Both the position numbers and the translations under genes were made by a program. The notes below the pieces were generated by a model. It was not told the DNA's origin. It ran no database searches and saw nothing but the letters and a program-made list of their open reading frames with translations. Positions 6,614 through 24,646 of a DNA stretch of 32,000 nt are shown here, one piece after another. Position 1 is the stretch's first letter. Every line of letters begins with the position of its first letter. Where the stretch lies: NCBI RefSeq assembly GCF_003324675.1, contig NZ_CP030918.1, forward strand, positions 420,001 to 452,000, in the 5' to 3' direction. The stretch is from Paracoccus suum. Its GTDB lineage: Bacteria; Pseudomonadota; Alphaproteobacteria; Rhodobacterales; Rhodobacteraceae.

Positions 6614-6671
6614 GTCGCCGCCATTTCGTCCGAAGGATTGTTGGGCGCCCGCAGCAGCGGAGCGCCGGAGG

Positions 6672-8006
6672 TCAGGCCACGAACGCCGTGCGCTGACCGC
6701 GTCTTGCGATCAGGATCGCACAGATCATCGACACCACGCCGGCAAACACCACATAGGCGCATAGCCAGAACGGGTCGTTGTTGTTCTTGGCCAGCAGCCA
6801 GGTCGCGATCATCGGCGTGATCCCCGAGGCGAAGATGCCCGAGAACTGGTAGACGAACGACACGCCCGTGTAACGCACGCTGGGATCGAACAGGTCGGCG
6901 AACAACGCCGCCTCAGGGCCATAGCAGATCGGGTAGACGATCCCGAACGGCAGCACGATCCCCAGTACCACCAGCAACGGGTTGCCGGTCGAGAGCAGCG
7001 CAAACGCAGGGAATACGCTCAGGCACAGCAGGGCCGAGCCGACGGCGTAGGTCTGCGGCCGGCCAAAGCGGTCCGAAACGCGGCCAAAGAAGGGGATCAG
7101 GAAGATCATCACCACCGCGGCCGTGCACACGGTCCACAGCGCAAAGGTCCTCTCCATCCCGACATACTTGGTCAGGTAGACGATCGAGAACACGGCAAAG
7201 ACGTTGAAGAAGACGCCGTCGATATAGCGCGCGCCCATGCCCAGCGCGACGTTGCCCGGGTAGCGGCGCATCATGGTGGCAAACGGCAGGCCCTGATCGC
7301 GGCCGCGCGATTCCTCCTTGGCGGCCAGGAACTCGGGGCTTTCGTCGATGTTGCTGCGGATCCAGGTGCCCAATGCGACCAGCAGGATCGAGGCGATGAA
7401 CGCTGCGCGCCAGCCCCAGGCCATGAACGATGCCTCGGGCAGCATGGTCAGCAGCGCCATCACGCCGGAGGCCATGAACAACCCCAGCGACAGGCCGATC
7501 TGCGGGATCGAGGCGTAAAAGCCGCGCTTGCCTTCGGGCGCGTATTCATAGGCCATCAGCACCGCGCCACCCCATTCGCCACCGATGCCGATGCCCTGAA
7601 GCACGCGCATGAGCAGCAGCAGCAGGGGCGCGGCGATGCCAGTCTGCGAATAGGTCGGCAGCAGGCCGATCACCACGGTCGCCCCGCCCATCATCAGCAG
7701 GGTGATGACCAGCATCGTCTTGCGGCCCAGCCGGTCGCCGAAATGGCCAAAGATCAGACCGCCCAGCGGCCGCGCGACAAAGCCCACCGCGAAGGTGGCA
7801 TAGGCCAGCATGATCGAGATGGTCGGGTCGTGGACGGGGAAATACAGCTGGTTGAAGACGATCCCGGCAACCACGCCATAGAGGAAGAAATCGTACCATT
7901 CGATGGTCGAGCCAACGAGGCTGGCGAAGACCACCTTTCTGACGTCCTGCTCGCGCGTTCGCACGGCGGCCGCCGGCACGCGGCCCAGACCGGACATATC
8001 CGACAT
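6672..8006 (-). CDS. MFS transporter of the metabolite:H+ symporter (MHS; ProP/KgtP-like) family.
   Basis: 12-TM-like hydrophobic profile, with EWYDFFLYG and GHFGDRLGRK motifs. I place the start at ATG 8006 (MSDMSG...) because GGGAGGG lies 5 nt upstream. The ORF-track start at 8084 has no ribosome-binding site. The GMC gene follows 58 nt downstream on the same strand. Confidence 0.85.
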   Translation of the reverse strand: MSDMSGLGRVPAAAVRTREQDVRKVVFASLVGSTIEWYDFFLYGVVAGIVFNQLYFPVHDPTISIMLAYATFAVGFVARPLGGLIFGHFGDRLGRKTMLVITLLMMGGATVVIGLLPTYSQTGIAAPLLLLLMRVLQGIGIGGEWGGAVLMAYEYAPEGKRGFYASIPQIGLSLGLFMASGVMALLTMLPEASFMAWGWRAAFIASILLVALGTWIRSNIDESPEFLAAKEESRGRDQGLPFATMMRRYPGNVALGMGARYIDGVFFNVFAVFSIVYLTKYVGMERTFALWTVCTAAVVMIFLIPFFGRVSDRFGRPQTYAVGSALLCLSVFPAFALLSTGNPLLVVLGIVLPFGIVYPICYGPEAALFADLFDPSVRYTGVSFVYQFSGIFASGITPMIATWLLAKNNNDPFWLCAYVVFAGVVSMICAILIARRGQRTAFVA

Positions 8007-8993: not shown

Positions 8994-9240
8994 GGGCACG
9001 CGCCGGCTCGGCGAGGGCGCCCGGCAGCGAGTCCCTGTCAGCGATCTGGCGCCCGACAAACTGCATATCGGCGCTGGGCGCCGAAATCGTCGCGGCTAGC
9101 CTCAACCTGAGGTGGTACTGTCGAATGGCGCGGTACGTCGCGACGGTATTCGGTTTCACGGTTGTTGCGGCAGGCCGCTTCGTTGCATGTACGCCCCTAA
9201 CCCCCTATCCCGCCCCTTTGCCCTGCCGCCGAGGTTTGCC

Positions 9241-10641
9241 ATGTTCCATCGCCCCATCGCCGCCGGCCTGCTGGCGCTGAGCCTCGCGGGGCTCGCCCCC
9301 GGCGCCCCGGCCCTCGCCCAGGTCCCGGGGCAGATGCCGCCCAAGCAGGTCGGCGTGGTCGAGATGCAGCTGCAGCCGGTGCCGCGCATCGTCACCCTGC
9401 CCGGCCGTGCGGTTGCCGGGGCCGAGGCGGCGATCCGCCCGCGCGTCTCGGGAATGGTCACCGAGATCCTTTATGATCCGGCGGTCCCGCTGAAAGCCGG
9501 CGCGCCGATGTTCCGGCTGGACGCAACCACCTACCAGTCCGGCGTCGTGACGGCCGAGGCGAACGTGGAATCCGCACAGGCCGCCTCGACCGAGGCTGAC
9601 GCCGCCGCCGGCCGGGCCAAGCGCCTGCTCGGCTCGGGCTCGACCCGTGTGCAGGCGGACAGCGCCCAGGCCGCTGCCGACCAGGCCGCCGCCCAGTTGC
9701 GGTCGGCCAAGGCCGCGCTCGACGTCGCCAAGGCCGAGCTTGGCTGGACGACCATCACCAGCCCCATCGACGGCTTCGCAAGCGTGGCCGCAGTCTCGGT
9801 CGGCGATCTCGTCACCGCCAATCAGGGCGAGGCGATGGCCACGGTCACGCGCCTCGATCCGATCGAAGTCGATATCCTGGTGCCGTCAGTGCGGCTGCAG
9901 TCGGTGATCGACGACATCGAATCGGGCCGGCTGAAGATGAACAAGACCCTGAACGCCACCCTGACGCTGGAGAACGGGCAGACCTACAAGGCCAAGGGCG
10001 AACTTGTGGCCCCCGGTTTCAGCGTCTCGACCACGACCGGGTCGGTCGACAACCGCTTCCGGTTCGAGAACCCGGACCGCAGGCTTTTGCCCGGCATGTT
10101 CCTTCGCGGCACGATCGAGCTGGGGACAACCCAGGCTTTCCTCGTCTCGCAATCTGCCGCGACGCGCGACCGGATCGGCGAGCTTTCGGTCTGGGTGGTC
10201 GAGGATGGCAAGGTCGTCCAGCGCAAGCTGAAGGACGATGGCAGCTGGAACAACAACTGGATTATCACCGATGGCCTGAAGGCGGGCGATCTGGTGGTGG
10301 CGGACAACCTGACCGGCCTGACGGCCGGCACGGCGGTGCAAACCCTGCCAGTGACCTATGACGAGCAGGGCGTGGTGCGCGCGGCACAGGCGACCCCCGC
10401 TGGCGGCGCGCCGGCCGCAACCCCGACCGATGGCGCGGCTTCCCCGGCGGCGAAGGCCCCAGCAGCCGTCTCAACCGGCACCGATGCGGCAGCCAGTAGC
10501 GGAGAGACGAACTCGTCCGAGGCGGCCGCCCCAGCCAGCACCCACGCCACGGACAGCGCCGAGGCACCGGCGGCCCCCGAAACCGATCCCGCAGCTGATG
10601 CGAAGCCGAATGGCGACGCGGCGGCCAAACCGGCCGAGTAG
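9241..10641 (+). CDS. RND efflux periplasmic adaptor (membrane fusion protein, AcrA/HlyD_D23-like) with a long Ala/Pro/Thr-rich C-terminal tail.
   Basis: ATG 9241 gives a signal-peptide-like start (MFHRPIAAGLLALSLAGLAPGAPALAQ) with GAGG upstream. An alpha-hairpin/coiled-coil segment (AEANVESAQAA...AAAQLRSAKAALDVAKAELGWT) is followed by barrel domains. The last ~86 aa are low complexity. Confidence 0.85.
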   Translation: MFHRPIAAGLLALSLAGLAPGAPALAQVPGQMPPKQVGVVEMQLQPVPRIVTLPGRAVAGAEAAIRPRVSGMVTEILYDPAVPLKAGAPMFRLDATTYQSGVVTAEANVESAQAASTEADAAAGRAKRLLGSGSTRVQADSAQAAADQAAAQLRSAKAALDVAKAELGWTTITSPIDGFASVAAVSVGDLVTANQGEAMATVTRLDPIEVDILVPSVRLQSVIDDIESGRLKMNKTLNATLTLENGQTYKAKGELVAPGFSVSTTTGSVDNRFRFENPDRRLLPGMFLRGTIELGTTQAFLVSQSAATRDRIGELSVWVVEDGKVVQRKLKDDGSWNNNWIITDGLKAGDLVVADNLTGLTAGTAVQTLPVTYDEQGVVRAAQATPAGGAPAATPTDGAASPAAKAPAAVSTGTDAAASSGETNSSEAAAPASTHATDSAEAPAAPETDPAADAKPNGDAAAKPAE

Positions 10642-10645
10642 TCCC

Positions 10646-13600
10646 ATGGCCCGCTTTTTCATCCACCGGCCCGTCTTTGCCTGGGTCATCGCGCTGATCG
10701 TCATGCTGGCCGGCGGCCTCGGGCTGACGCAGTTGCCGATCGAGCAATATCCCCAGATCGCGCCAACCACGGTCAGCGTGCGCGCGACTTATACCGGCGC
10801 CTCGGCCGAAATCGTCGAATCCTCGGTGACGACCGTCCTTGAGGACGCGATGACCGGGATCGAGGGGCTGATCTACATGACCTCCTCCTCGACGCCCGGT
10901 TCGGCGTCGATCTCGCTGACCTTCGACGACACGGTCGATGCGGACATTGCGCAGGTGCAGGTGCAGAACAAGCTGCAACTGGTGACCTCGCAACTGCCCT
11001 CGGTCGTGCAGCAGAGCGGCGTCAGCGTCACCCGCTCGACCTCGTCGATCCTGCTGGTCGGGGCGCTGACATCGCTGGACGGGCGCTACAGCTCGGTCCA
11101 GTTGGGCGACATCACCGCGCAGATGATCGAGAACCCGGTCCAGCGCACGCCGGGCGTCGGCTCGATCAACACCTTCAGTTCGGGTTACGCGATGCGCGTC
11201 TGGCTGGACCCGCTGAAGATGGTCCAGTACCAGGTCACGCCTTCGGACGTGATGGCCGCGGTGTCCGAGCAGAACACCAACGTTACCGTCGGCAACCTCG
11301 GCAGCCAGCCCTCGGCCGAGGGACAGCGGATCACGATCCCCGTCTCGGCCCAGTCGCAACTGTCGACCGTGCCCGAGTTCGAGAACATCCTGCTGCGCGT
11401 GGCCGAGGACGGCTCGACCGTGTTCCTGGGCGATGTCGCCCGGATCGAGATCGGGCAGGAATCCTACGGCGTCGATTCGCGCTACAACGGCCATCCGGCA
11501 GCGGGTTTCGCCGTGAACCTCGCCACTGGCGCAAACGCGGTCGACACCGCCGCCGCCGTTCGCGCGACCATCGCCGGGATCGAAAGCTCGCTGCCCCAAG
11601 GGGTCAGTGTGGTCTATCCCTACGACACCGCGCCGTTCGTCGAGAAATCAATCAACCAAGTCTACAAGACGCTGGCCGAGGCCGTAGTGCTGGTGTTCCT
11701 CGTGATCCTCGTCTTCCTGCAAAGCTGGCGCGCGACGCTGATCCCGGTGATCGCAATCCCGGTGGTTTTGCTGGGAACATTCGGCGTGCTTGCCATGGCG
11801 GGCTTCACGATCAACACGCTGACCATGTTTGCGCTGGTGCTGGCCATCGGCCTGCTGGTCGACGATGCCATCGTTGTGGTCGAGAACGTCGAGCGCGTGA
11901 TGGAGGAAGAGGGGCTCGACCCCGTTGCCGCGACCGAGCGCAGCATGGACGAGATCACCTCGGCGCTGGTCGGCATCGTGCTGGTGCTGTCGGCAGTGTT
12001 CCTGCCGATGGCCTTCATGGGCGGCGCCACGGGGGTCATCTATCGCCAGTTCTCGATCACCATCATCACCGCGATGGTGCTGTCCCTCGGGGTGGCGCTG
12101 ATCTTGACGCCGGCGATGTGCGCCAGCCTGCTGAAAAAGCGCGCCCATGGTGGCGGCATCGCCCCGGCGCGCTGGTTCAACACCGGCCTCGACAAGGTGA
12201 CGGGCGGCTATGCCGGGGTCGTCACGCGGCTGGTGCGCCGGCCGTTCATGATGCTGCTGGTGCTGCTGGCCTTTGGCTACGGCGCCTTCACCCTGTTCCA
12301 GAAGATGCCCGGCTCGTTCATCCCGCAAGAGGACCAGGGCGTGTTGATGGCGATGGTCTCGACCCCCGACGGCTCGACCATCGCGCAGACGACCGCGCTG
12401 GTCGAGGACATCGAGAAATACCTGCTGGAGCAAGAAAAAGAGACCGTGGAATCGGTCTTCGCCGCCGTTGGCTTCGGCTTCACCGGGCCGGGGCAGGACA
12501 CCGCGATGGTGTTCGTCAAGCTGCGGGACTACGCGGAGCGCGAGGGGCAGGACGCCGCCGCGCTGGTCAATCGGGCCAACGCCCATTTCTTCATGACCAA
12601 CCGCGCCGGGCAGGTGTTCGTGCTGCAACCGCCGGCCATTCAGGGCATGGGCACCTCGTCGGGCTTTACCATGTATCTGCTCGACCAGAGCGGCCAGGGC
12701 CAGGAACAGATGGCCAAGGCCGCCGACACGCTGGTCGCGACGGCGCAAAAGGATGGCCGCGTGACCAACCTGCGCGGCAACGACGCCCCCTACCAGAGCG
12801 CGCTGCGGCTGGACATCGACCAGCAACGCGCAGCCGCTTATGGCCTTTCGGTATCCGAAGTGAACGCCATGCTGTCGGTCATCTTCTCGGGGCGCGAGGT
12901 CAACGACTTTGCCCTCGGGACCGAACTGCGGCCGGTGATCGTGCAGGGCGAGGCGGCTGCCCGCTCGCAACCCGAGGACATCGACCTCTGGCATGCCCGC
13001 AACAGCGGCGGCGAGATGGTCTCGTTCGGCGCCTTCGCCAGCCGCGAATGGGACGAGCAGGCGCAGGCGCTGGCCCGCTTCGGCGGCACCCGGGCGCTGG
13101 AGATCAGTGGCAGCGCCGCGGCGGGCCTGTCCTCGGGTGCCGCGATGAACGCGATGGAGGAACTGGTCAGCGCCATGCCGGGCGGCTACGCGACCGCCTG
13201 GACCGGGCTGTCCTATCAGGAGCGTCTGTCCGGCAACCAGGCACCCATGCTGTTCGCGCTGTCGGCGCTGATCGTGTTCCTTGCTCTGGCCGCCCTTTAC
13301 GAGAGCTGGACGGTGCCGCTGGCGGTCATGATGACCGTGCCAATCGGAATCGTCGGCGCGCTGGCAGCGGCGCTTTACTTCGGCCAGTCGAACGACGTCT
13401 ATTTCAAAGTCGGCCTGCTGACGACCATCGGCCTCGCCGCGCGAAACGCGATCCTGATCGTCGAGTTCGCGCAGGCATTGGTCAAGGAGGGACGCCCCTT
13501 GCTGGAGGCTGCGATTGAAGCCTCGCGCATGCGCCTGCGGCCGATCCTGATGACGACCTTTGCCTTCATGCTGGGGGTGATGCCGCTGGCGATCGCCTCC

Positions 13601-13774
13601 GGCGCGGGTGCCGGGGCGCAGCGGTCCATCGGCATCGGCGTTCTGGGTGGCATGGCCGCCTCCGCCGCCATCGGTATCTTCCTTGTGCCGGTGTTCTATG
13701 TTGCGGTGATGCAGGCGACCCGCATGGTCCGCCGCCGCGGTCGCAAGGACCCGGCCCCCGAGGTCCGCGCCTGA
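10646..13774 (+). CDS. RND efflux permease (AcrB/MexB-like, HAE1 type).
   Basis: ATG 10646 gives the canonical MARFFIHRPVFAWVIALIVMLAGG N-terminus, 4 nt after the adaptor stop. About 1042 aa with 12-TM/2-loop RND organisation (..VLAIGLLVDDAIVVVEN.., ..GLAARNAILIVEFA..). Confidence 0.95.
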   Translation: MARFFIHRPVFAWVIALIVMLAGGLGLTQLPIEQYPQIAPTTVSVRATYTGASAEIVESSVTTVLEDAMTGIEGLIYMTSSSTPGSASISLTFDDTVDADIAQVQVQNKLQLVTSQLPSVVQQSGVSVTRSTSSILLVGALTSLDGRYSSVQLGDITAQMIENPVQRTPGVGSINTFSSGYAMRVWLDPLKMVQYQVTPSDVMAAVSEQNTNVTVGNLGSQPSAEGQRITIPVSAQSQLSTVPEFENILLRVAEDGSTVFLGDVARIEIGQESYGVDSRYNGHPAAGFAVNLATGANAVDTAAAVRATIAGIESSLPQGVSVVYPYDTAPFVEKSINQVYKTLAEAVVLVFLVILVFLQSWRATLIPVIAIPVVLLGTFGVLAMAGFTINTLTMFALVLAIGLLVDDAIVVVENVERVMEEEGLDPVAATERSMDEITSALVGIVLVLSAVFLPMAFMGGATGVIYRQFSITIITAMVLSLGVALILTPAMCASLLKKRAHGGGIAPARWFNTGLDKVTGGYAGVVTRLVRRPFMMLLVLLAFGYGAFTLFQKMPGSFIPQEDQGVLMAMVSTPDGSTIAQTTALVEDIEKYLLEQEKETVESVFAAVGFGFTGPGQDTAMVFVKLRDYAEREGQDAAALVNRANAHFFMTNRAGQVFVLQPPAIQGMGTSSGFTMYLLDQSGQGQEQMAKAADTLVATAQKDGRVTNLRGNDAPYQSALRLDIDQQRAAAYGLSVSEVNAMLSVIFSGREVNDFALGTELRPVIVQGEAAARSQPEDIDLWHARNSGGEMVSFGAFASREWDEQAQALARFGGTRALEISGSAAAGLSSGAAMNAMEELVSAMPGGYATAWTGLSYQERLSGNQAPMLFALSALIVFLALAALYESWTVPLAVMMTVPIGIVGALAAALYFGQSNDVYFKVGLLTTIGLAARNAILIVEFAQALVKEGRPLLEAAIEASRMRLRPILMTTFAFMLGVMPLAIASGAGAGAQRSIGIGVLGGMAASAAIGIFLVPVFYVAVMQATRMVRRRGRKDPAPEVRA

Positions 13775-13792: not shown

Positions 13793-15058
13793 CTAGGTGC
13801 GGAACCGGACCGTCGCGCAAAAGCCGTCGCCCCGCCCCGGTGCGGGCGAGGCCAAGGTCAGGGCCGCGCCTTCCCGCAGGGCGTGGCCCTCGACAATGGC
13901 GAGGCCAAGGCCGCTGCCTGACGCGCGGCTGGCGCCGCGCTGGAAGCGCCGGGTCAGTTGATTGAGCAGAGTGGGATCGAGCACCTGCCCGCCGTTGCAG
14001 ACTGTTAGCGTGTCGCCTGCCAGCACCACGGTGATCGGATCGGTCCCGTGCAAGACCGCGTTCTCGATCAGGTTGCGGGCGATGACGGCAAAGGCGTCCA
14101 GATCGACGGCCAGCAGGTGTGGCTTCTCCGGCAGGGCCAGTTCGGTCGTCGGAAACTCGGCCGCCACCAGTTGCAGCGCCTGCCGCACATCCTGTGGGGC
14201 CGCCTTCGGCCCCGAAGCGGCCCCGCCTTCGGCCCGGGCCAGTTCCAGCAGCTTGCCAGCGAGCCGGCCGACCCGGCGCAACTGCGCCGCCAGAGTTGAG
14301 GCGCGCCGCGCCAGGCGCGGGTCGGTCGCCTCGGCCTCCAGCATCTCGGCCTGGGCGAGGGCGGCGGCGATGGGGGTGCGCAACTCATGCGCGGCGTTCG
14401 AGGAGAAGGCGCGCTCGGCTGCGAGCGCTTCGTCGAGCCGCCCCATGAGTCGGTCGACGGCGTCATGCATCGGCTGCAGTTCGACCGGCAGTGGTGCCGC
14501 CGACAGCGGTCGCAGATCTGCTGCCCCGCGGTCCGCGACCTCGCGCGACAAGGCGTTGACCGGGGCCAGTTGCCGCCGGACAAAGCGCCACAGCCCGAAA
14601 ATGGCCAGCGGCAGTAACAATGCGAAGGGCACGAGCGCGGACAGCAGCGTCTCGCGCACCGCCTCACGTCGCTCGGCCAGCGGGTCCGCGACCTGCAGCA
14701 GTCCGCCATCGGGCAGTCGCTGCGTCAGCACCCGCAGGCCATCCACGCGCGAAAAGCCGATGGGCGTTTCCGCGGGCAACTCGCCGACAGCGTAAACCGT
14801 CTGGCCATCGGTCGCGGTCAGTCGCGCCCGCAGCGCCCCAGCAGGGCGGCGATCCCCTAGTCCCGCTGCACCCGCACCCGCCCCGATCACCGCCAGACGC
14901 TCGGATGTACGCGTCAGAGCTGCGTCATAGATCTCGTCAATTTCCACCCCCAGAACAGCCCAGCCGATGGCCAGCGCGGCCAGCCAGACCGCCACCAGCC
15001 CGCAGCCGAAGCCGAGCGTCAGATCGCGCGTCAGGCTTCGCGGCGGCGTCCTCGTCAC
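13793..15058 (-). CDS. Sensor histidine kinase (QseC/BasS-like; two TM segments, HAMP, HisKA, HATPase).
   Basis: H-box SNAAHELRTPIAA, N-box NLIENAVLHG and G-box GSGLGLAIVEG are present. I place the start at GTG 15058, which overlaps the response-regulator stop (GTGA). The longer ORF-track start would overlap the regulator gene by 265 nt. Confidence 0.85.
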   Translation of the reverse strand: MTRTPPRSLTRDLTLGFGCGLVAVWLAALAIGWAVLGVEIDEIYDAALTRTSERLAVIGAGAGAAGLGDRRPAGALRARLTATDGQTVYAVGELPAETPIGFSRVDGLRVLTQRLPDGGLLQVADPLAERREAVRETLLSALVPFALLLPLAIFGLWRFVRRQLAPVNALSREVADRGAADLRPLSAAPLPVELQPMHDAVDRLMGRLDEALAAERAFSSNAAHELRTPIAAALAQAEMLEAEATDPRLARRASTLAAQLRRVGRLAGKLLELARAEGGAASGPKAAPQDVRQALQLVAAEFPTTELALPEKPHLLAVDLDAFAVIARNLIENAVLHGTDPITVVLAGDTLTVCNGGQVLDPTLLNQLTRRFQRGASRASGSGLGLAIVEGHALREGAALTLASPAPGRGDGFCATVRFRT

Positions 15059-15711
15059 GGCGCGATCCGGTAGCCGACGCCACGCTGCGTCTCGATCGCG
15101 CTGCGGCCAAGCTTGCGCCGCAGCCGGCTGATATAGACTTCGACCGTGTTGCTCTCGGCGCCCTCCTCGAAGGAATAGATGCGGTCCTCGATCTGCGCCC
15201 GGCTCACAAAGCGGCCGGCACGCGCGATGAGGGTTTCCAGCACGATCCATTCGCGGCGGCCGACCTCGACGGGGCCGTCCGGGCCGGTGACCCGACGCCG
15301 GGCCAGATCGACCTGACACGCGCCCAGGCTTATGATCGGGCTGGGGTTGCCACCATATCGGCGGGCGACGGCGCCGATCCGGGCGGACAGTTCGGCCAGA
15401 TCGAAGGGTTTGACCAGATAGTCGTCCGCCCCGGCGTCGAGCCCCGCGATCCGCTCGGAAATACGGTCGCGCGCGGTCATCACGATCACGGGCACCTGGT
15501 GCCCCGCCGCCCGCAGCCGGCGCAGGAAGGCCAGCCCGTCGCCATCCGGCAACATCAGATCGAGCAGCACCAGATCATAGCTCATGGCCGACATGCAGGC
15601 ATCCGCATCGTCCAGCGTGGTCATCCAGTCGGGGAGGTGACCGTCGGCGGCGATCCGGTCGCGCACCGCGGCGCCGATCCCCTCGTCATCCTCGATCAGC
15701 AAGATCCGCAC
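15055..15711 (-). CDS. OmpR/PhoB-family response regulator.
   Basis: The receiver reads VRILLIEDDEGIG...DLVLLDLMLPDGDG...PVIVMTA...KPF. The winged-helix C-terminus reads ...VEVYISRLRRKL...TQRGVGYRIAP. GTG 15711 is chosen as the start. The ORF-track start at 15756 is a TTG that adds 15 atypical residues. Confidence 0.85.
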   Translation of the reverse strand: MRILLIEDDEGIGAAVRDRIAADGHLPDWMTTLDDADACMSAMSYDLVLLDLMLPDGDGLAFLRRLRAAGHQVPVIVMTARDRISERIAGLDAGADDYLVKPFDLAELSARIGAVARRYGGNPSPIISLGACQVDLARRRVTGPDGPVEVGRREWIVLETLIARAGRFVSRAQIEDRIYSFEEGAESNTVEVYISRLRRKLGRSAIETQRGVGYRIAP

Positions 15712-15779
15712 CCGACGTCCCCACGCGACAGGATCGCACGGTGACGCGAAATGCAAGGCAAGACCAGCCTTTGGCAGAT

Positions 15780-15798: not shown

Positions 15799-15820
15799 GT
15801 TGAAGGCGCAAGATATCCGG

Positions 15821-16414
15821 ATGACTTCGCTGATGCCGTCGCGCCCGCCCTCACGCCTCGCCCTGCGCTTCTTGCTGCGGGCGGGGCTGTTTTTCATCGG
15901 CTTGCTGATCGCCGCCGCCGGCTGGGCGGGCTTCCTGCAATACCGCGGCAACTTCCATCCGGTTCGCGCCGGCGAGATGTATCGTTCGGCCCAGCCGAGC
16001 CCCGAGGCGCTGACCAACTGGGCTGGCGTCAACGGCATTCGCAGCGTGGTCAACCTGCGTGGCGCCTCGGACTCCGACTGGTATCGCGACGAGATTGCAA
16101 CCTCGAAGCGCCTTGGCCTCGCCCATGCCGATTTCCGCATGAGCGCCGGCGAGCATCTGACCCCGGCCCGGGCCAACGAATTGCTCGCGTTGCTGGATTC
16201 AATGCCCGGCCCGGTGCTGATCCACTGCAAGTCGGGGGCCGACCGTACCGGCCTCGCGTCCGCCTTGTGGCTAGCGCGTCACGGCGGCGGCGAAGAGGCA
16301 GCCGAGTCGCAGATATCTTTCCGTTTTGGCCATGTCTCGCTGCCGCTGACCGCCGCCTGGCCCATGGACCAGAGCTGGGAGGCCCTGGAGCCCGAGATGG
16401 GATTTGCCAGCTGA
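15821..16414 (+). CDS. Membrane-anchored Cys-based phosphatase (PTP/dual-specificity superfamily, CX5R).
   Basis: Active-site signature VLIHCKSGADRTGLAS (HCxxGxxRT). There is one N-terminal TM helix (LALRFLLRAGLFFIGLLIAAAGWAGFL). The start is uncertain: ATG 15821, ATG 15833 or TTG 15800. The stop TGA overlaps the next ATG (TGATG). Confidence 0.75.
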   Translation: MTSLMPSRPPSRLALRFLLRAGLFFIGLLIAAAGWAGFLQYRGNFHPVRAGEMYRSAQPSPEALTNWAGVNGIRSVVNLRGASDSDWYRDEIATSKRLGLAHADFRMSAGEHLTPARANELLALLDSMPGPVLIHCKSGADRTGLASALWLARHGGGEEAAESQISFRFGHVSLPLTAAWPMDQSWEALEPEMGFAS

Positions 16415-17040
16415 TGAGCGTCACCGCCGACTCAAACCACACCATCACCCCCGCCAACCAGCGCCTTCGGATCGCGGTGTTGCGCATCCTGTTCGTGCTC
16501 GCCGCCCTGCCGATCCTCCTGGGCGTTCCCGTCTGGCACGGCGCCGCGCTGTCGCTGGTGCACACCCTGGGCACCTTAACGATCATCGCCGCGGTGCTGG
16601 GCCGGTTCTGGGCGATTCTCTATATCGGCGGTCGCAAGAACGCGACAGTCATGCAGGACGGCCCCTATTCGCTCTGCCGCCACCCGCTCTATTCCTTCTC
16701 GATCATCGGGGTGGTCGGCTTTGGCCTCGCGCTCGGCAGCGTGGTGCTGGCGGTGGCGCTCGGCGCGCTCGCCGCTGCTGTCCTGTGGCTGACCGCCCGA
16801 CGGGAGGAGCGTTTCCTGCGCGCCGCCTTTGGCCCCGCTTACGACGCCTACGCCGCCCACGTGCCCCGCCTGATGCCGCGCCTGTCCAATTTTCACACCC
16901 CCCCGCGCATCACGGTCGATTTGTCCGTCCTGCGCCGCAACCTGGCCGATGCACTGGTGTTTCTGACCGCAATCCCGCTGGCCGCGGCGATCCAGGCGAT
17001 GCACGCAGCGGGTTACGGGGCCGCCTTCCGCCTCTGGTAA
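16414..17040 (+). CDS. ICMT/PEMT-family integral-membrane methyltransferase (isoprenylcysteine carboxyl methyltransferase-like).
   Basis: 208 aa and polytopic. The family core is present: GPYSLCRHPLYSFSIIG ... REERFLRAAFGPAYDAYAAHVPRLMP (the RHPxY...EE..L...FG..Y..Y motif). The ORF-track entry 15751..17040 is the same frame running open upstream. ATG 16414 is the coupled start. Confidence 0.8.
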   Translation: MSVTADSNHTITPANQRLRIAVLRILFVLAALPILLGVPVWHGAALSLVHTLGTLTIIAAVLGRFWAILYIGGRKNATVMQDGPYSLCRHPLYSFSIIGVVGFGLALGSVVLAVALGALAAAVLWLTARREERFLRAAFGPAYDAYAAHVPRLMPRLSNFHTPPRITVDLSVLRRNLADALVFLTAIPLAAAIQAMHAAGYGAAFRLW

Positions 17041-17078: not shown

Positions 17079-17876
17079 CTAGCCCAGACGGTGGACGCCC
17101 TCGGGCGCGACGCCGAATGCAGCGAGGGCCATCCACACCGCCATGGCGATCATCATCAGGTTCTCGACCAGCGAGATAAAGCCCAGCGGCACGTTGCTGC
17201 CCCCGCCGACGCAGGCGCATTTCAACTCGCGGTTCTCGACATAGACCGCCTTGAAGACCGACACCGCGCCGACCGTCCCGATGAAAAGTGCGATGGGCAC
17301 CGACAGCCAGGTCAGCGCGCCCGCGATCATCAGAACGCCTGCCAGCCCCTCGGCAAAGGGATAGATATAGCCGTAGGGCACCCAGCGCTCGGCCAGAAGG
17401 TCGTAGTTCAGGAACATCGTGGCGAACGTCTCGACGTTCTGCAGCTTGAGCAGCGCCAGCACGGCCATTGAGAAGCCGATGAACCATTCCGCGGCCATCA
17501 GCGTCAGCGGGTTTCCGGTGACAGCATAGCTTGCCGCCATCGCCATCAACGCCGTCGTCGCGAACAGCGCGATGACCGGGCGATAGCTGGTCGCCTTGGG
17601 ATCCGCGACACTCTTGCCGAGGAAGCGGCGCAGGTCGTCATGCCCGCCGATTCGTTTGCCGTCGATAAAGATCTGGGGCGTGGTCGCAACGCCGTGTTCG
17701 GCCTTGAAGGCCTGGGTCTGCTCGCGTGTCTCGAGGTGATGATCCTCGACCTGGTAGCCGGCGCGCTTGAGCAGATGCATGGATTTCAGCCCATAGGGGC
17801 AGGTGTGCCCGGGCATCACCATGCGGTACAGCGCCGCTTTCGTTCCGGGTGCTGGATGTTTGCTCAGGTCCGACAT
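17079..17876 (-). CDS. Fusion protein: an N-terminal glutaredoxin-like domain (monothiol CPYG) joined to a C-terminal MauE/DoxX-like 4-TM membrane domain.
   Basis: ATG 17876 (MSDLSKH...) is preceded by AAGGAA. The Grx fold reads ALYRMVMPGHTCPYGLKS...TTPQIFIDGKRIGGHDDLRRFL. Four hydrophobic helices follow, with ELKCACVGGGSNVPLG before the last one. Confidence 0.8.
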   Translation of the reverse strand: MSDLSKHPAPGTKAALYRMVMPGHTCPYGLKSMHLLKRAGYQVEDHHLETREQTQAFKAEHGVATTPQIFIDGKRIGGHDDLRRFLGKSVADPKATSYRPVIALFATTALMAMAASYAVTGNPLTLMAAEWFIGFSMAVLALLKLQNVETFATMFLNYDLLAERWVPYGYIYPFAEGLAGVLMIAGALTWLSVPIALFIGTVGAVSVFKAVYVENRELKCACVGGGSNVPLGFISLVENLMMIAMAVWMALAAFGVAPEGVHRLG

Positions 17877-17906
17877 CTCACGTTCCTTGTGGTGGGGCCG
17901 GGGCAG

Positions 17907-17938
17907 ATATAGGGTCTGTACCATGGTACAGAGTCAAG
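17907..17938 (-). promoter_or_regulatory. MerR-type promoter/operator for the Grx-MauE gene: -35, 20-bp spacer carrying an 18-bp perfect palindrome, -10.
   Basis: The minus strand reads CTTGAC (17938-17933), then T-CTGTACCATGGTACAG-ACC, then CTATAT (17912-17907). The palindrome TCTGTACCATGGTACAGA spans 17915-17932. The layout mirrors Tn21/Tn501 merO (TTGACTCCGTAC...GTACGGA) inside an overlong spacer. Confidence 0.65.
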
Positions 17939-18327
17939 AGTCGAACACGCTGACGATTGGCGGCCTTGCAGCAGGCGGGAAGGTCGGGGTCGAGACGGTC
18001 CGATTCTACCAGCGCAAGGGTCTGCTCGGCACGCCCCACCGCGTTGGCGGGATCCGTCGCTACGGCGGCGAGGATCTGCGCCGCCTGCGCTTTATCCGCC
18101 AGGCACAGGCGGCCGGGTTTACACTGGAGGAGATCAAGGAACTGCTGCTCCTCGACGCCGGCGAGGACCGCGCGCGGGCGCGCGAACTCGCCCACGCAAG
18201 GGTCGAGCATCTGAACGCCAAGATCGCCGATTTAGAGCGCGCAAGGGACGCCCTGCGGCGGCTCGCAAACGAATGCGAGCATGGCGTCAAGGGCCCCTGC
18301 CCGATCCTCGCGTCATTCGGGATTTAG
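17923..18327 (+). CDS. MerR-family metal/thiol-responsive regulator of the Hg-MerR clade by sequence, but with only two Cys.
   Basis: 134 aa. MVQSQESNTLTIGGLAAGGKVGVETVRFYQRKGLL...IRRYGGEDLRRLRFIRQAQAAGFTLEEIKELL...ANECEHGVKGPCPILASFGI is colinear with Tn21 MerR. ATG 17923 is in frame with the ORF-track entry 17803..18327 and gives a MerR-length N-terminus. Confidence 0.9.
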   Translation: MVQSQESNTLTIGGLAAGGKVGVETVRFYQRKGLLGTPHRVGGIRRYGGEDLRRLRFIRQAQAAGFTLEEIKELLLLDAGEDRARARELAHARVEHLNAKIADLERARDALRRLANECEHGVKGPCPILASFGI

Positions 18328-18453: not shown

Positions 18454-18488
18454 AAAAAAAGCCCGCCGCAACGGCCACGTTGCGGCGG
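18454..18488 (-). terminator. Rho-independent terminator of the aldehyde dehydrogenase gene.
   Basis: The minus strand reads CCGCCGCAAC-GTGGCC-GTTGCGGCGG, a perfect 10-bp stem (18463-18472 with 18479-18488), followed by GC and TTTTTTT (18460-18454). The stem starts 28 nt after the stop codon. Confidence 0.8.
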
Positions 18489-18516
18489 AACGATTTCGTG
18501 CTGACGCTCAGCACCA

Positions 18517-21076: not shown

Positions 21077-22288
21077 TCAGGCGAACAGCTCGCGGCAGAA
21101 GATCAGGCCGTCGATCAGGGCGTCAACCTCGGCCTCGGTGTTGTAGAGGGCAAAGCTGGCACGGGCGCTCGCGGTAACGCCGTAGAACTGCATCAGCGGC
21201 ATGGCGCAGTGGGTGCCGGCGCGGATGGCGATGCCGCGCTTGTCGAGGATGGTCGAGAGGTCATGCGCATGCGCCCCCTCCATCGTCATCGAGAAGATCG
21301 CCCCTTTGCCCGGTGCATCCCCCTGGACGGTCAGCCAGTTCAATTCCCGCAGGCGCGCGCGGGCGTGGTCGCGCAGCGCACGCTCATGCGCGGCGATGTT
21401 CTCCATCCCGAGGCCCATCATGTAGTCGAGCGCGACGCCCAGGCCGATCTGGTTGACGATGCCAGGCGTGCCGGCCTCGAACCGCAGCGGCGGGTCGGCA
21501 TAGGTCACGGCCTCGCGCGTGACCTCCCGGATCATGTCACCGCCGCCCATGAAGGGGCGCATCTCGTCCTGGCGGGCGCGGTCGATCCAGATCGCACCCG
21601 AGCCGGACGGGCCATACAGCTTGTGCCCGGTGATGGCGTAGAAGGCGCAGCCAAGCGCCGGCACATCCAGCGGCAGGTGGACGGCAGCCTGGCTGCCATC
21701 GACCAGAACCGGAACGTCAGTGCCGCGCGCGATGGCGCCGACATCGACGACGGTGCCCGTCACGTTCGACATGTGGGTGACGGCGATCAGCTTGGTGCGG
21801 GGGGTGATCGCAGCCAGCATCTTTTCCGGCGGCAAGCTGCCGTCGGGTTCTGGCTCGACCCATTTCAGCACGACGCCCTGACGCTCGCGCAGGAAAGCCC
21901 AGGGGACGATATTGGCGTGGTGCTCCAGCACCGACAGCAGGATCTCGTCCCCGGCCTTCAGGCGCGGGGCGGCCCAGGAATAGCTGACCAGATTGATGGC
22001 CTCGGTCGCGCCGGAGGTGAAGATCACCTCGGCCGGATGGCGCGCCTTGAGGAAGCGGGCGATGGTGCCGCGCACCGCCTCGTAACGCTCGGTCGCAAGG
22101 GTCGACAGCGTGTGCAGCCCGCGGTGGACGTTGGCGTATTCGCCTTCGTATGTGCGCGAGATGGCGTCGATCACGACGCGCGGCTTTTGCGCGCTGGCGC
22201 CGTTGTCGAGGTAGACCAGCGGCCGGCCGTTGACCTGCCGCGACAGGATCGGGAAATCGGCGCGGATGGCGGGCAGATCAAGCGTCAT
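21077..22288 (-). CDS. sufS: Cysteine desulfurase SufS (group II).
   Basis: 403 aa. The PLP-Lys motif is [13 protein letters not shown] and the active-site motif is RAGTHCAMP. The ATG overlaps the upstream stop (ATGA). Confidence 0.9.
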
Positions 22289-22878: not shown

Positions 22879-23387
22879 TTTCCTGGCCTTTCGATCAACG
22901 CCCGCACACCCGAGAGCCAGATGAACAGGAACCCGGTCCCGGCCAGCAGCCGCGTCGCGGTCAGCGCCGGGCCGGGACCGACCAGCCCCTCGGTGAGACC
23001 AGCCAGCAACATCGCCGGGGCAACGGCCAGCAGTGCCCAGAAGAGCGCGAGCCGCGAATCGGCTGGGTGGAGCACCCATCCGCCAAGGCGTAGCAGCCAA
23101 CTGAGCGCCTGCGCCGCGCCGTAGGCAGCCAGCGGCATCAGGAACATGACGGCAAGCCCTGCCCCGGCCAGGCGCGGTCCCAACGGAATCCCCGGGTCCA
23201 GCGCCGCTGCCCGCGCGTGGCCGGGCGCCTGCGCGATCAGGAAGACCAGCAGCGCCGCCAGCAGGAGCGCCAGCAGGGCGCCCTCGGGCATGCCGCGCAA
23301 TCCGCGCACGACCCGCCCCGGTGCGAACCAGCTTTCCAGCACGCGCGGCGCCAGGCCGCGGGCGGCGCGGGGCGGCGCCGGTCTCAC
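22875..23387 (-). CDS. Polytopic membrane protein, possible paralogue of the downstream Yip1-like protein, function unknown.
   Basis: 170 aa from GTG 23387, which overlaps the sufD stop (GTGA). It has an Arg-rich N-terminus followed by 4-5 hydrophobic helices (LLALLLAALLVFLIA, AGLAVMFLMPLAAYGAA, LALFWALLAVAPAMLLAGL, LLAGTGFLFIWL). The coupling at both ends argues that it is real. Confidence 0.6.
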   Translation of the reverse strand: MRPAPPRAARGLAPRVLESWFAPGRVVRGLRGMPEGALLALLLAALLVFLIAQAPGHARAAALDPGIPLGPRLAGAGLAVMFLMPLAAYGAAQALSWLLRLGGWVLHPADSRLALFWALLAVAPAMLLAGLTEGLVGPGPALTATRLLAGTGFLFIWLSGVRALIERPGK

Positions 23388-24646
23388 CCGCCGTTGCCAA
23401 TCTGGCCGGCGTCGGCGGTCAACGCCTCCTCGACGCGGGCAGAAATGCGGCTGCGCAGGCCGTCATCCTCGATCTCGGCCAGCGCGTCGGCGAGGAAGGA
23501 GAGCACCAACAGCACTTCGGCCTGAGCCTTGGGCACGCCGCGCGAGCGCAGGTAGAACAACGCCGTCTCGTCGATCGCGCCGGTGGTGCTGCCGTGGCTG
23601 CACTTCACGTCGTCGGCGTAGATTTCCAGTTCGGGCTTGGCGAGGAACTGGCACAGTTCATCCAGCAGCAGCGACTGGCTGATCTGGTAGCCGTCGGTTT
23701 TCTGCGCGCCCGGCCGGACCAGGATCTTGCCCTGAAAGATGCCGGTCGCGCTGCCCCGTAGTACCTTTTTGAACACTTGGCGGCTTTCACCGCGCAGGCC
23801 GCCGTGAATGATGAATACCGTGTCATCGTTGATGAAATCGCGGCCATCGCCCAGCGCGGCGCCGGCCAGATGGACCACCGCGTCATCGCCGACGACATCG
23901 ATCACTGCCTCGCGACGAAGATGCCGGCCATCCAGCGCCAGCGCAAAGGACTTGAGCACCGATTCGTTGCCGAGACGCGCGAACAGATGCGAGAGCGCCA
24001 GTTCGTCGCCGCGGCGCTTGGCGGCGATCAGGTGCAGCTTGGCACCGTCGGCGAGATCGGCCTCGATCACCGAGTTCTGTCGCGAGCCGGCCGAGCCGGT
24101 CTCGATCAGTGTCAGCTCGGCCCCCGGTTCGAGGTGGATGACATGGTGCCAGACCGCATCGCCGGCCGCCTCGGTGCGCCGATGCAGGATGTGAAGCGGC
24201 CGCGTGGGGCGGCCGGTGACGCGGATCGCGAGGCCATCCGCGGCCCTTGCGGTATTCATCGCCGCCAGGGGACGCGGCACCGGGATATGCGCCGCCGCCT
24301 CGCGCGCGCCGTAGGCGCGGCGCGCCCAGTCCGGCGCTGCCGCCAAGGGCGCAATCTCGACCCCGTCCAGCGGCAGCGGATCGGAGGCTGCGGCGTCAAA
24401 ACGGCCATCCACGAAAACCAGCGTCAGGCGGTCCAGATCGGAGAACAGCGTGCCGTCGCCCTGCGGCAGGGCGACGGAAGGCGCATCGCCCTGCGAGAAA
24501 TCGGCTGGGCCGGCAAAGCGCCAGTATTCGTCCCGGCGGCCGGGCAGGCCCAATTGCGCCAGGCGATCCTCGGCCGCTTGCCGGGCGACGCCTAGGGGCG
24601 AATCGCTCGCCGGGGTTCGGGTCAGGACAGGTGACAGGTCCGCCAT
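23384..24646 (-). CDS. sufD: Fe-S cluster assembly protein SufD.
   Basis: 420 aa with a beta-helix-type SufD C-terminus (...QKTDGYQISQSLLL...AKPELEIYADDVKCSHGSTTGAIDE..LFYLRSRG). The ATG overlaps the sufC stop by 1 nt. Confidence 0.9.
   Translation of the reverse strand: MADLSPVLTRTPASDSPLGVARQAAEDRLAQLGLPGRRDEYWRFAGPADFSQGDAPSVALPQGDGTLFSDLDRLTLVFVDGRFDAAASDPLPLDGVEIAPLAAAPDWARRAYGAREAAAHIPVPRPLAAMNTARAADGLAIRVTGRPTRPLHILHRRTEAAGDAVWHHVIHLEPGAELTLIETGSAGSRQNSVIEADLADGAKLHLIAAKRRGDELALSHLFARLGNESVLKSFALALDGRHLRREAVIDVVGDDAVVHLAGAALGDGRDFINDDTVFIIHGGLRGESRQVFKKVLRGSATGIFQGKILVRPGAQKTDGYQISQSLLLDELCQFLAKPELEIYADDVKCSHGSTTGAIDETALFYLRSRGVPKAQAEVLLVLSFLADALAEIEDDGLRSRISARVEEALTADAGQIGNGG

Follow-up and report, generated by a model that had tools for sequence, protein, structure and literature searches.

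What purpose might be served by a glutaredoxin that is fused to a membrane domain and placed beside a MerR-type regulator? This question is raised by a stretch of 32,000 nucleotides from Paracoccus suum (assembly GCF_003324675.1, contig NZ_CP030918.1, positions 420,001 to 452,000), which we call the window and whose own numbering is used throughout. In it, a gene for a glutaredoxin-MauE fusion protein lies divergent to a gene for a MerR paralogue, with a promoter-operator between them. An earlier note on this DNA had suggested a glutathione-dependent membrane thiol/redox or soft-metal device under metal or electrophile control. For comparison we fetched 80 genome loci, each with a homologue 72-84% identical to the window protein. 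The elements of the pair are as follows.

17079 to 17876, minus strand: glutaredoxin-MauE fusion gene, 265 amino acids (aa), SmGrx3 family, stop codon included
17923 to 18327, plus strand: divergent MerR-paralogue regulator gene, 134 aa, recognised by its Pfam MerR domains
17906 to 17937, minus strand: MerR-type promoter-operator, assigned from the sequence and kept in 75 of the 80 loci

We propose that the fusion protein is a glutathione-linked thiol:quinone redox device at the inner membrane face, inducible by a soft metal that is probably Cu(I), and we give this reading a probability of roughly 0.5. The device suggested in the earlier note fits the evidence gathered, but only one of its two kinds of control is retained: metal control is favoured by the C-X7-C-P loop of the regulator and by the copper contexts of the family, whereas control by electrophiles is less likely. 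The same note knew of no characterised function for the fusion, and the literature agrees, stating that the function of the Sinorhizobium meliloti member SmGrx3 'still remains to be elucidated' (PMC6315971).

The fusion itself is real and common. The window protein is 100% identical to the NCBI entry 'glutaredoxin [Paracoccus suum]', and a homologue search gave at least 8000 matches. Among the matches listed, which apart from the P. suum entry are 79-86% identical to the window protein, all 120 carry both Pfam domains. The architecture is thus conserved, and an assembly artefact joining two genes, the concern voiced in the earlier note, is ruled out by this common architecture together with the identity to an annotated protein. 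Profile searches place both domains above their Pfam thresholds, as had been expected: Glutaredoxin (PF00462) scores 32.3 bits against a cut-off of 22.9 over residues 24-76, and MauE (PF07291) scores 48.7 bits against 27, with residues 126-251 covering model positions 5-127 of 128. In an NCBIfam scan of the fusion protein the glutaredoxin matches were all below threshold. The family ranges over alpha-, beta- and gammaproteobacteria and cyanobacteria, and the gene is found in 331 plasmid records, about half of which are conjugative plasmids. Regarding the start codon, the list of open reading frames extends the gene to an ATG at 17924 (281 aa). This cannot be the start because it lies inside the operator centre, upstream of the -10 element. 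The ATG at 17876 has an AAGGA Shine-Dalgarno sequence 8 nt upstream and agrees with the starts of the homologues.

The N-terminal part of the protein has a glutaredoxin fold.

17622 to 17840, minus strand: glutaredoxin domain, residues 13-85, delimited by AlphaFold2 secondary structure and Foldseek

Residues of about 13-90 resemble the solved glutaredoxins 3msz, 3grx and 3qmx in Foldseek, with TM-scores of at most 0.73 when normalised to the target. The active site is C26-P-Y-G29 (17790-17801, minus strand), and the elements T65-T-P-Q-I-F-I (65-71) and G77-G-H-D-D-L (77-82) are both present, so that the description of a CPYG site in place of CPYC with intact glutathione elements was right. This site is neither CxxC nor CxxS/CGFS. 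C26, T66, P67, G77 and the Gly29 of the fourth position are invariant in 21 diverse members, and G78 is found in at least 90% of them. T66-P67 is the cis-Pro motif, and the elements of the glutathione site (cis-Pro, GG-x-DD) are kept. 'Monothiol' therefore means here a class-I-like CPYC site minus its second Cys, and not a CGFS glutaredoxin. Binding of an Fe-S cluster by this glutaredoxin is unlikely, given the Pro in CPYG.

The regulator has its metal-loop cysteines at C118 (18274-18276) and C126 (18298-18300), in the loop C118-EHGVKGP-C126-P. Among the cysteines of 66 orthologues only these two are conserved, and their C-X7-C-P spacing is CueR-like. The best NCBIfam match is the Hg(II)-MerR model TIGR02051, with 105.9 bits against a cut-off of 150.85 that is not passed. 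The CueR model TIGR02044 gives 80.2 bits against 147.4, again not passed, ZntR gives about 80 bits and the NmlR and SoxR models score far lower. Tn501 MerR (5crl, 92.9 bits) is the best solved relative; of its three Hg ligands (Cys82, Cys117 and Cys126), Cys82 is replaced by a conserved Arg. By transfer through the alignment with MerR Cys82, this Arg stands at the position of CueR Ser77, where a direct CueR alignment has an insertion.

The DNA between the two genes reads, on the minus strand, TTGACT-CTGTACCATGGTACAG-ACCC-TATATC. Here the -35 element TTGACT (17937-17932) is followed by a perfect 16-bp dyad, CTGTAC-CATG-GTACAG (17931-17916), and by the -10 element TATATC (17911-17906), with a spacer of 20 bp. 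A scan for standard sigma-70 promoters with 16-18 bp spacers found none nearby, as expected with this spacer length. MerR-type activation at over-spaced promoters is established for relatives. The whole promoter-operator, TTGACTCTGTACCATGGTACAG, occurs once in the window, where 0 occurrences are expected by chance, and no second operator was found in the window or in any fetched locus. The Tn21/Tn501 mer operator-promoter is matched exactly by 2205 plasmid records, and its position in R100 is between merR and merT. The half-sites of our family consensus, CCGTAC/GTACGG, are those of Tn21 merO, and the window copy, CTGTAC/GTACAG, is one base off in each half-site. The regulator defines a MerR subgroup, apparently a new one, that combines mercury-type DNA recognition with a two-cysteine, CueR-like metal loop.

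A further peculiarity is the position of the regulator start codon. The regulator's own operator dyad has this ATG (17923) at its centre, and codons 1-5 (M-V-Q-S-Q) match, in reverse complement, one half of the dyad and the adjoining -35 TTGACT (dyad and -35 element together, 17916-17937). The MV(Q/R)SQ N-terminus is conserved in regulator orthologues. This would imply a leaderless or near-leaderless merR mRNA, with a constraint at the DNA level on the N-terminus of the regulator.

With mercury-type DNA recognition in hand, the pair might be thought a minimal mer-like module, in which an Hg(II)-responsive regulator controls a fusion protein that imports or sequesters Hg(II). The two best matches of the regulator are Hg-MerR proteins, the consensus half-sites are shared with Tn21, and the three cysteines on the predicted cytoplasmic side of the fusion protein could bind Hg(II). 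However, the third Hg ligand is lost to a conserved Arg and the score stays below the MerR cut-off. A MerA-type motif is found in 0 of the 80 loci, there is no conserved merT/merP cluster in them, and the neighbours are copper genes rather than mercury genes. Import of Hg without MerA is harmful. We consider a mercury-specific system very improbable.

The association of the two genes is not peculiar to P. suum. A MerR paralogue, 54-79% identical to the window regulator, lies immediately upstream and divergent in 66 of the 80 loci, and the operator-promoter starts about 61 bp upstream of the fusion start where this was measured. The same divergent MerR, with an MVRSQ N-terminus, and the same operator accompany a member that is only 38% identical. 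The question posed in the earlier note, whether the fusion is divergent to a two-Cys MerR in other genomes, can thus be answered positively. Besides the regulator, no gene is common to more than 11 of the 80 loci.

Some loci deviate from this pattern. Eight of them (L005, L010, L015, L044, L046, L047, L062 and L077), mostly Allosphingosinicella paralogues, keep the operator 60-62 bp ahead of the fusion start but lack a MerR gene within 6 kb, an indication that a regulator encoded elsewhere acts in trans. One metagenome-assembled genome has two fusion copies that do carry the regulator (L011, L067). The MerR proteins near cyanobacterial fusion genes (L084 5509-5922; L087 12094-12483) have a different cysteine pattern, the first Cys lying where the dimerisation helix begins (D-L-P-C-G-D) and the second being C-terminal (I-C-P-N-L), and their best NCBIfam match is CadR/PbrR, below cut-off. 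The L084 regulator gene has its own over-spaced promoter, TTGACT...TATATT.

What the regulator may sense is indicated by the gene context of the family. Copper-resistance-type genes or DUF305 genes, with names verified by Pfam, lie within 6 kb in 27 of the 80 close loci. They include DUF305 (15 loci), multicopper oxidase (13), CopB (8), DUF411 (7), cupredoxin (6), TolC-type outer-membrane efflux (6) and CusF (5). By a rough estimate, fewer than 1% of random 12-kb stretches would hold a multicopper oxidase gene. More distant members, with identities as low as about 35%, show a stronger copper signal, and among them we found the following arrangements (identity to the window protein in per cent; x, another gene).

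Roseobacter plasmids, 63-65%: copA-cueR-DUF305-fusion in large copper islands, the cueR product above the CueR cut-off
Halomonas, 59%: copAB-x-fusion
Metagenomic contig L097, 59%: DUF411-cytochrome c-copC-copD-multicopper oxidase-dsbA, with a divergent CsoR-family gene plus DUF305-fusion and the palindrome ATACCCTATATGGGTAT between (about 5440-5460)
Pseudoalteromonas, 55%: copABCD-NTF2-DUF411-DUF305-fusion
Leptolyngbya plasmid, 48%: MerR-fusion-HlyD-RND
Cyanobacterial-type contig, 45%: CDF-fusion-DUF305, beside cupredoxin, P-type ATPase and MerR genes
Metagenomic contig, 44%: multicopper oxidase-fusion-x-YHS-YHS
Metagenomic contig L090, 41%: HMA-x-cupredoxin-fusion
Metagenomic contig L093, 38%: fusion-csoR operon behind a CsoR-type palindrome, ATACCCATACGGGGTAT (about 1150-1170)

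The repressor of L093 has the Cys/His/Cys pattern of Cu(I) binding, and among NCBIfam models it resembles the copper sensor RicR most, with a score below cut-off. About 11 of the 14 divergent contexts hold metal genes or copper-type regulators. Four independent kinds of control are attached to the fusion gene, namely the MerR paralogue, CueR, CsoR-type repressors and cop operons, and copper is their common denominator. Based on this gene context across the family, the signal is most likely Cu(I) or a similar ion such as Ag(I) or Au(I). DUF305 is the domain of CopM, a periplasmic protein that binds Cu(I) with a KD of about 3 x 10^-16 and confers copper resistance (PMC4335983).

Two details of these loci deserve mention. 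In a roseobacter, a gammaproteobacterial and a metagenomic locus (L083 7103-7975, L085 5446-5955, L097 5469-5984), the gene directly upstream of the fusion encodes a DUF305 protein with three transmembrane (TM) helices. The second of these carries a methionine ladder, five times M-x3-M in L083 (residues 40-56); a K-rich loop comes next, and then the DUF305 domain, predicted to be periplasmic. From its sequence, the ladder looks like a helix that could bind or conduct Cu(I). In L090, the genes upstream of the fusion (5764-6980) encode an HMA protein with a signal peptide (MxCxxC), a 124-aa membrane protein and a cupredoxin-like protein. Helix 1 of the 124-aa protein contains a CC pair, and a loop has the form C-P...C; the protein is MerT/MerF-like without a Pfam or NCBIfam match.

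The copper contexts also bear on the electrophile branch of the earlier suggestion, in which the regulator would sense thiol-reactive compounds or disulfide stress and the fusion would use glutathione to buffer or detoxify electrophiles and quinones. The MauE/DoxX clan has ties to quinones and thiol homeostasis, as in the MauE preprint discussed below and as in Mycobacterium tuberculosis DoxX and Bacillus subtilis MhqP; GST and nitroreductase genes lie upstream at one distant locus, and an aldehyde dehydrogenase gene adjoins merR in the window. This last gene is, however, not conserved in other loci. In sensors of the MerR, CueR and CadR types, a C-X7-C-P loop where the dimerisation helix ends is the signature of metal binding, the models of NmlR and SoxR fit far worse, and other lineages use CueR or CsoR-type control or cop operons instead. 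An electrophile or quinone stress module seems improbable to us.

The membrane part of the protein was examined with AlphaFold2 on an alignment of 21 sequences (mean pLDDT 88.6, pTM 0.72).

17517 to 17582, minus strand: extra linker TM helix, residues 99-120, from AlphaFold2 and hydropathy, outside the Pfam MauE model
17118 to 17501, minus strand: four-helix MauE core, residues 126-253 (PF07291)
17211 to 17219, minus strand: C220-A-C222, a CXC motif in the loop that joins core helices 3 and 4, identified by conservation and predicted to face the cytoplasm

The model has the glutaredoxin fold at 13-85, a 13-residue linker, helices at 99-120, 126-146, 166-185, 189-213 and 231-253, two short amphipathic helices at 148-164 and the CXC-bearing loop at 214-230. 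The earlier count of four TM helices has to be corrected accordingly, as five are predicted, the linker helix and the four of the MauE core. The assignment to a MauE/DoxX-type domain holds for MauE; DoxX (PF07681) has no match at E<=0.01 in the Pfam scan of the fusion protein. Foldseek against the PDB returned glutaredoxin and GST matches only and no solved relative of the membrane part, and a tblastn search of plasmids with the membrane domain (E<=5) found members of the fusion family only and no canonical MauE.

Conservation was counted in 19 good sequences with 33-81% identity. C26, G29, T66, P67, G77, P173, G203, C220, G224 and L231 are invariant in 19/19, while K144, L145, F151, Y158, D159, Y168 and E238 are each found in 18/19. 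Somewhat less conserved are C222 (17/19), E176 (16/19), N239 (16/19), M242 (15/19) and M245 (14/19), and the MauE core thus has a conserved stretch E238-N-x-x-M242-x-x-M245. The most divergent sampled members, P0186 and P0251 (L098, L099; 35-37% identical), keep C220 and lose C222 (C-A-A-F-G; C-S-S-V-G); one of the two genes adjoins a CzcCBA-like pump and a DsbA-like gene.

A function for this domain can be suggested from its relatives. In a preprint of March 2026, four-helix MauE proteins substitute for E. coli DsbB; a CXC in the loop that joins helices 3 and 4 forms the active site, mutation of either Cys abolishes activity, and a conserved Lys in helix 1 and Glu in helix 2 flank a docked ubiquinone (bioRxiv 10.64898/2026.03.05.709764). 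Fusions to thioredoxin-superfamily domains make up 8.2% of MauE entries in the same work (bioRxiv 10.64898/2026.03.05.709764). In the window protein, K144 (95% conserved, core helix 1), E176 (84%, core helix 2) and C220-x-C222 are found where the preprint puts the catalytic Lys, Glu and CXC, a match made by helix position and not by residue-level alignment. The sequence K219-C-A-C-V-G-G-G (219-226), to which the earlier note drew attention, is present, and it is the generic MauE catalytic CXC rather than a special metal motif. By analogy, the membrane domain most likely performs quinone-coupled thiol-disulfide chemistry.

On which side of the membrane would this chemistry take place? Since four helices lie between them, the glutaredoxin and the CXC loop are on the same side in either orientation. 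The mean number of Lys plus Arg is 1.6 in the linker and 2.2 and 2.7 in the two long loops, and 0.0 and 0.1 in the opposite loops; the CXC loop carries K209, R216 and K219. The N-terminal domain has no signal peptide and holds 15 Lys/Arg against 10 Asp/Glu, which makes it a poor candidate for N-tail export. The conserved glutathione elements are one line of evidence for the cytoplasm, glutathione being mainly a cytoplasmic cofactor. In 7 of the 120 top homologues, DUF305 is fused straight after the last helix (TM5) without an extra helix. DUF305 proteins encoded separately next to the fusion carry a signal peptide or else have three TM helices and an inner loop rich in Lys; either arrangement predicts a periplasmic domain, and the periplasmic location of CopM/DUF305 is experimental (PMC4335983). 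From the charge distribution, the N-terminal domain, the glutathione elements and the position of DUF305, we predict with considerable confidence that the CXC loop and the glutaredoxin are cytoplasmic and that the MauE core is inverted relative to the canonical enzymes.

The opposite orientation would make the protein a periplasmic DsbA/DsbB-like fusion, whose exported glutaredoxin would form periplasmic disulfides or mend those that copper has damaged, in the manner of the Dsb and Scs proteins of copper islands. Canonical MauE has its CXC in the periplasm and can stand in for DsbB (bioRxiv 10.64898/2026.03.05.709764), VKOR-thioredoxin fusions use an extra helix in a similar way, and genes for DsbA-like proteins, DsbB and CcdA are frequent neighbours. 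Yet such a topology needs the export of a net-positive N-terminal domain of 98 residues without a signal peptide and a gross breach of the positive-inside rule. It would also leave the fused DUF305 in the cytoplasm, against the predicted periplasmic location of its free counterparts. A single-Cys CPxG site is unable to carry a disulfide like DsbA, G29 is invariant and the glutathione-binding motifs are conserved, all of which speaks against this explanation, and we hold it to be a poor prospect.

In the thiol:quinone reading that we prefer, the events might be as follows. A thiophilic metal held between C118 and C126 would lead the regulator, bound at the dyad, to distort the DNA of the promoter with its 20-bp spacer and so activate the divergent gene, its single target in the window. 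In the protein, the CXC pair would cycle between dithiol and disulfide with a quinone as electron acceptor, and C26 together with glutathione would exchange with the CXC pair through mixed disulfides (Grx-S-SG), a chemistry for which we argue because the second Cys of the glutaredoxin is replaced by an invariant Gly. The monothiol glutaredoxin mechanism via Grx-S-SG is established for relatives. With redox potentials of about -240 mV for glutathione and about +100 mV for ubiquinone, the expected direction of electron flow is from the former to the latter, and the products may be glutathione disulfide (GSSG) or S-glutathionylated thiols at the inner membrane face. S-glutathionylation could cap thiols against a thiophilic metal, and in many genomes the fusion may work alongside a periplasmic, CopM-like DUF305 copper-binding protein.

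The same cysteines could act without any quinone chemistry. In a thiolate relay or transporter, C26 (with glutathione) and C220/C222 would make up a Cu(I) site open to the cytoplasm, and the metal would move through the helix bundle, lined by Glu and Met, to or from periplasmic DUF305, a process that can be likened to mercury uptake by MerP, MerT and the N-domain of MerA. Several observations are in line with this: the copper context across the whole family, the DUF305 domains fused to the predicted periplasmic C-terminus, the conservation of E176, E238, M242 and M245 on TM helices, the M-x3-M ladder of the neighbouring three-TM DUF305 proteins, a His-containing periplasmic tail in close homologues, and the L090 locus, where an HMA protein with a signal peptide and a small CC-motif membrane protein stand beside the fusion. 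But the CXC, Lys and Glu are generic to MauE enzymes without a metal link (bioRxiv 10.64898/2026.03.05.709764). In addition, distant members have no conserved Cys or His on the periplasmic side, no energy coupling is evident and DUF305 is nearby in only 15 of the 80 close loci. We therefore regard a relay as unlikely, if worth bearing in mind.

Quinone chemistry and metal movement could also be combined in a redox-driven ejector of soft metals, an idea that we find rather doubtful. Cu(I) from the glutathione pool would bind the reduced C26, C220 and C222; oxidation of the CXC by quinone would destroy this site and free the metal into a path lined by Glu and Met towards the periplasmic DUF305; and the single-Cys glutaredoxin with glutathione would re-reduce the CXC, so that a new cycle can start. 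In sum, 2 glutathione, a quinone and Cu(I) inside would yield GSSG, a quinol and Cu(I) outside. In a weaker form of this novelty, the protein may be the first natural cytoplasm-facing DsbB-type enzyme, coupling the quinone pool to glutathione oxidation or protein S-glutathionylation.

There are several points that weigh against a copper-induced thiol:quinone device. The weakest link of the argument is the benefit, since it is not obvious what a cell under copper stress would gain from a thiol oxidase acting in its cytoplasm, and the Met-rich helices of the fusion and of its DUF305 partners fit metal conduction equally well. The copper link of the family comes from gene context, and in the window there are no copper genes near the pair, with copA, cueO and DUF305 all lacking. 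The regulator is closest to Hg(II)-MerR and not to CueR. The orientation is a prediction. The MauE biochemistry is taken from one preprint that is not peer-reviewed and concerns distant 4-TM members, and the motif here is CAC-V-G-G instead of the usual CGC-F-G. Finally, a SmGrx3 mutant had no phenotype in growth and symbiosis under the tested conditions (PMC6315971).

SmGrx3 (SMa0280), encoded on pSymA of S. meliloti, has low deglutathionylation activity (PMC6315971). It has the same CPYG glutaredoxin and MauE architecture and is 78-80% identical over residues 13-256, with no structural difference from the window protein, and its gene has the same divergent MerR gene; the window protein is its orthologue. 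The review describing it gives no regulator, topology or metal link (PMC6315971), and our literature search found no link of the glutaredoxin-MauE family with copper or a MerR regulator and no topology for it. The window gene is therefore an ordinary member of a known, named family, and the object itself is not new. Within the searchable literature, what appears to be new is the pairing with a two-Cys MerR subgroup of mercury-type DNA recognition, the copper context across the family and the predicted cytoplasm-facing DsbB-type module fused to a single-Cys glutaredoxin.

Comparison with other systems shows where the family stands. Canonical MauE, which works with MauD or DsbA, shares the four-helix core, the CXC between core helices 3 and 4 and a thioredoxin-fold partner on the CXC side, and, judged by helix position, probably also the Lys of helix 1 and the Glu of helix 2. 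The window protein differs in its extra N-terminal helix, its fused and predicted cytoplasmic glutaredoxin, its predicted cytoplasmic CXC and its CAC-V-G-G in place of CGC-F-G. Whereas the canonical partner is a CXXC protein, the partner domain here has one Cys and glutathione-binding motifs, and mau genes are found neither in the window nor in the conserved neighbourhood. VKOR-thioredoxin fusions and the DsbB-DsbA pair likewise tether or pair a four-helix membrane thiol:quinone oxidoreductase with a thioredoxin-fold protein, an extra helix placing the partner on the side of the active site. However, these are unrelated sequence families with periplasmic dithiol partners and housekeeping functions that are not regulated by metals.

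On the side of the regulator, the MerR-merO-merTPA system of Tn21/Tn501 has the same divergent regulator, -35 TTGACT, over-long spacer and regulator start codon abutting the operator, and its MerR is about 40% identical to ours. It differs in having a spacer of 19 bp rather than 20 bp, a C-X8-C instead of a C-X7-C loop, Cys82 instead of Arg, and merTPA instead of a single glutaredoxin-MauE gene as its target. The window regulator shares the two-cysteine C-X7-C-P loop with CueR and yet is not a CueR, as its score is below the cut-off and an Arg stands at the Ser77 position. In other lineages the fusion belongs to CueR or CsoR copper regulons, either in a copA-cueR row or behind CsoR-type boxes, and CopM-like DUF305 domains, related to CopM of Synechocystis, are found next to or fused with family members.

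These relations matter since the family is large and widespread and has no assigned function, with a null phenotype for its only studied member. A role in copper or soft-metal stress, if true, would explain the null result for SmGrx3, and a protein with 'no phenotype' is turned into a source of directly testable hypotheses. If the predicted orientation is true, there would be a natural cytoplasm-facing relative of DsbB that ties the respiratory quinone pool to cytoplasmic glutathione chemistry. The regulator subgroup could be useful for studying the evolution of metal selectivity and possibly for biosensors.

The remaining observations concern the surroundings of the pair. In agreement with the earlier note, no mer gene (merT, merP or merA) and no P-type ATPase, CDF or multicopper oxidase gene flanks it in the window. 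Its neighbours there encode an RND pump, a two-component system, a PTP-like phosphatase, an ICMT/PEMT-like methyltransferase, the aldehyde dehydrogenase and Suf proteins. The phosphatase gene (15800-16414) overlaps the methyltransferase gene (16414-17040) by TGATG, which suggests translational coupling; both converge on the 3' end of the fusion gene and are not conserved there elsewhere. In S. meliloti, an unrelated S-adenosylmethionine-dependent methyltransferase gene lies downstream of the fusion. A terminator-like hairpin with 12 pairs, 9 of them G-C, and a following T-run (18462-18489, minus strand) lies in the gap that separates the aldehyde dehydrogenase gene from the 3' end of merR, closely downstream of the former. 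The RND efflux pump genes (9112-13774), for a membrane-fusion protein and an AcrB-type transporter, adjoin those of the two-component system (13793-15756). On the other side of the pair, Pfam identifies a SufS-type gene (21077-22288) and a SufBD-type gene (23384-24646), and these are followed by two further open reading frames up to 27206.

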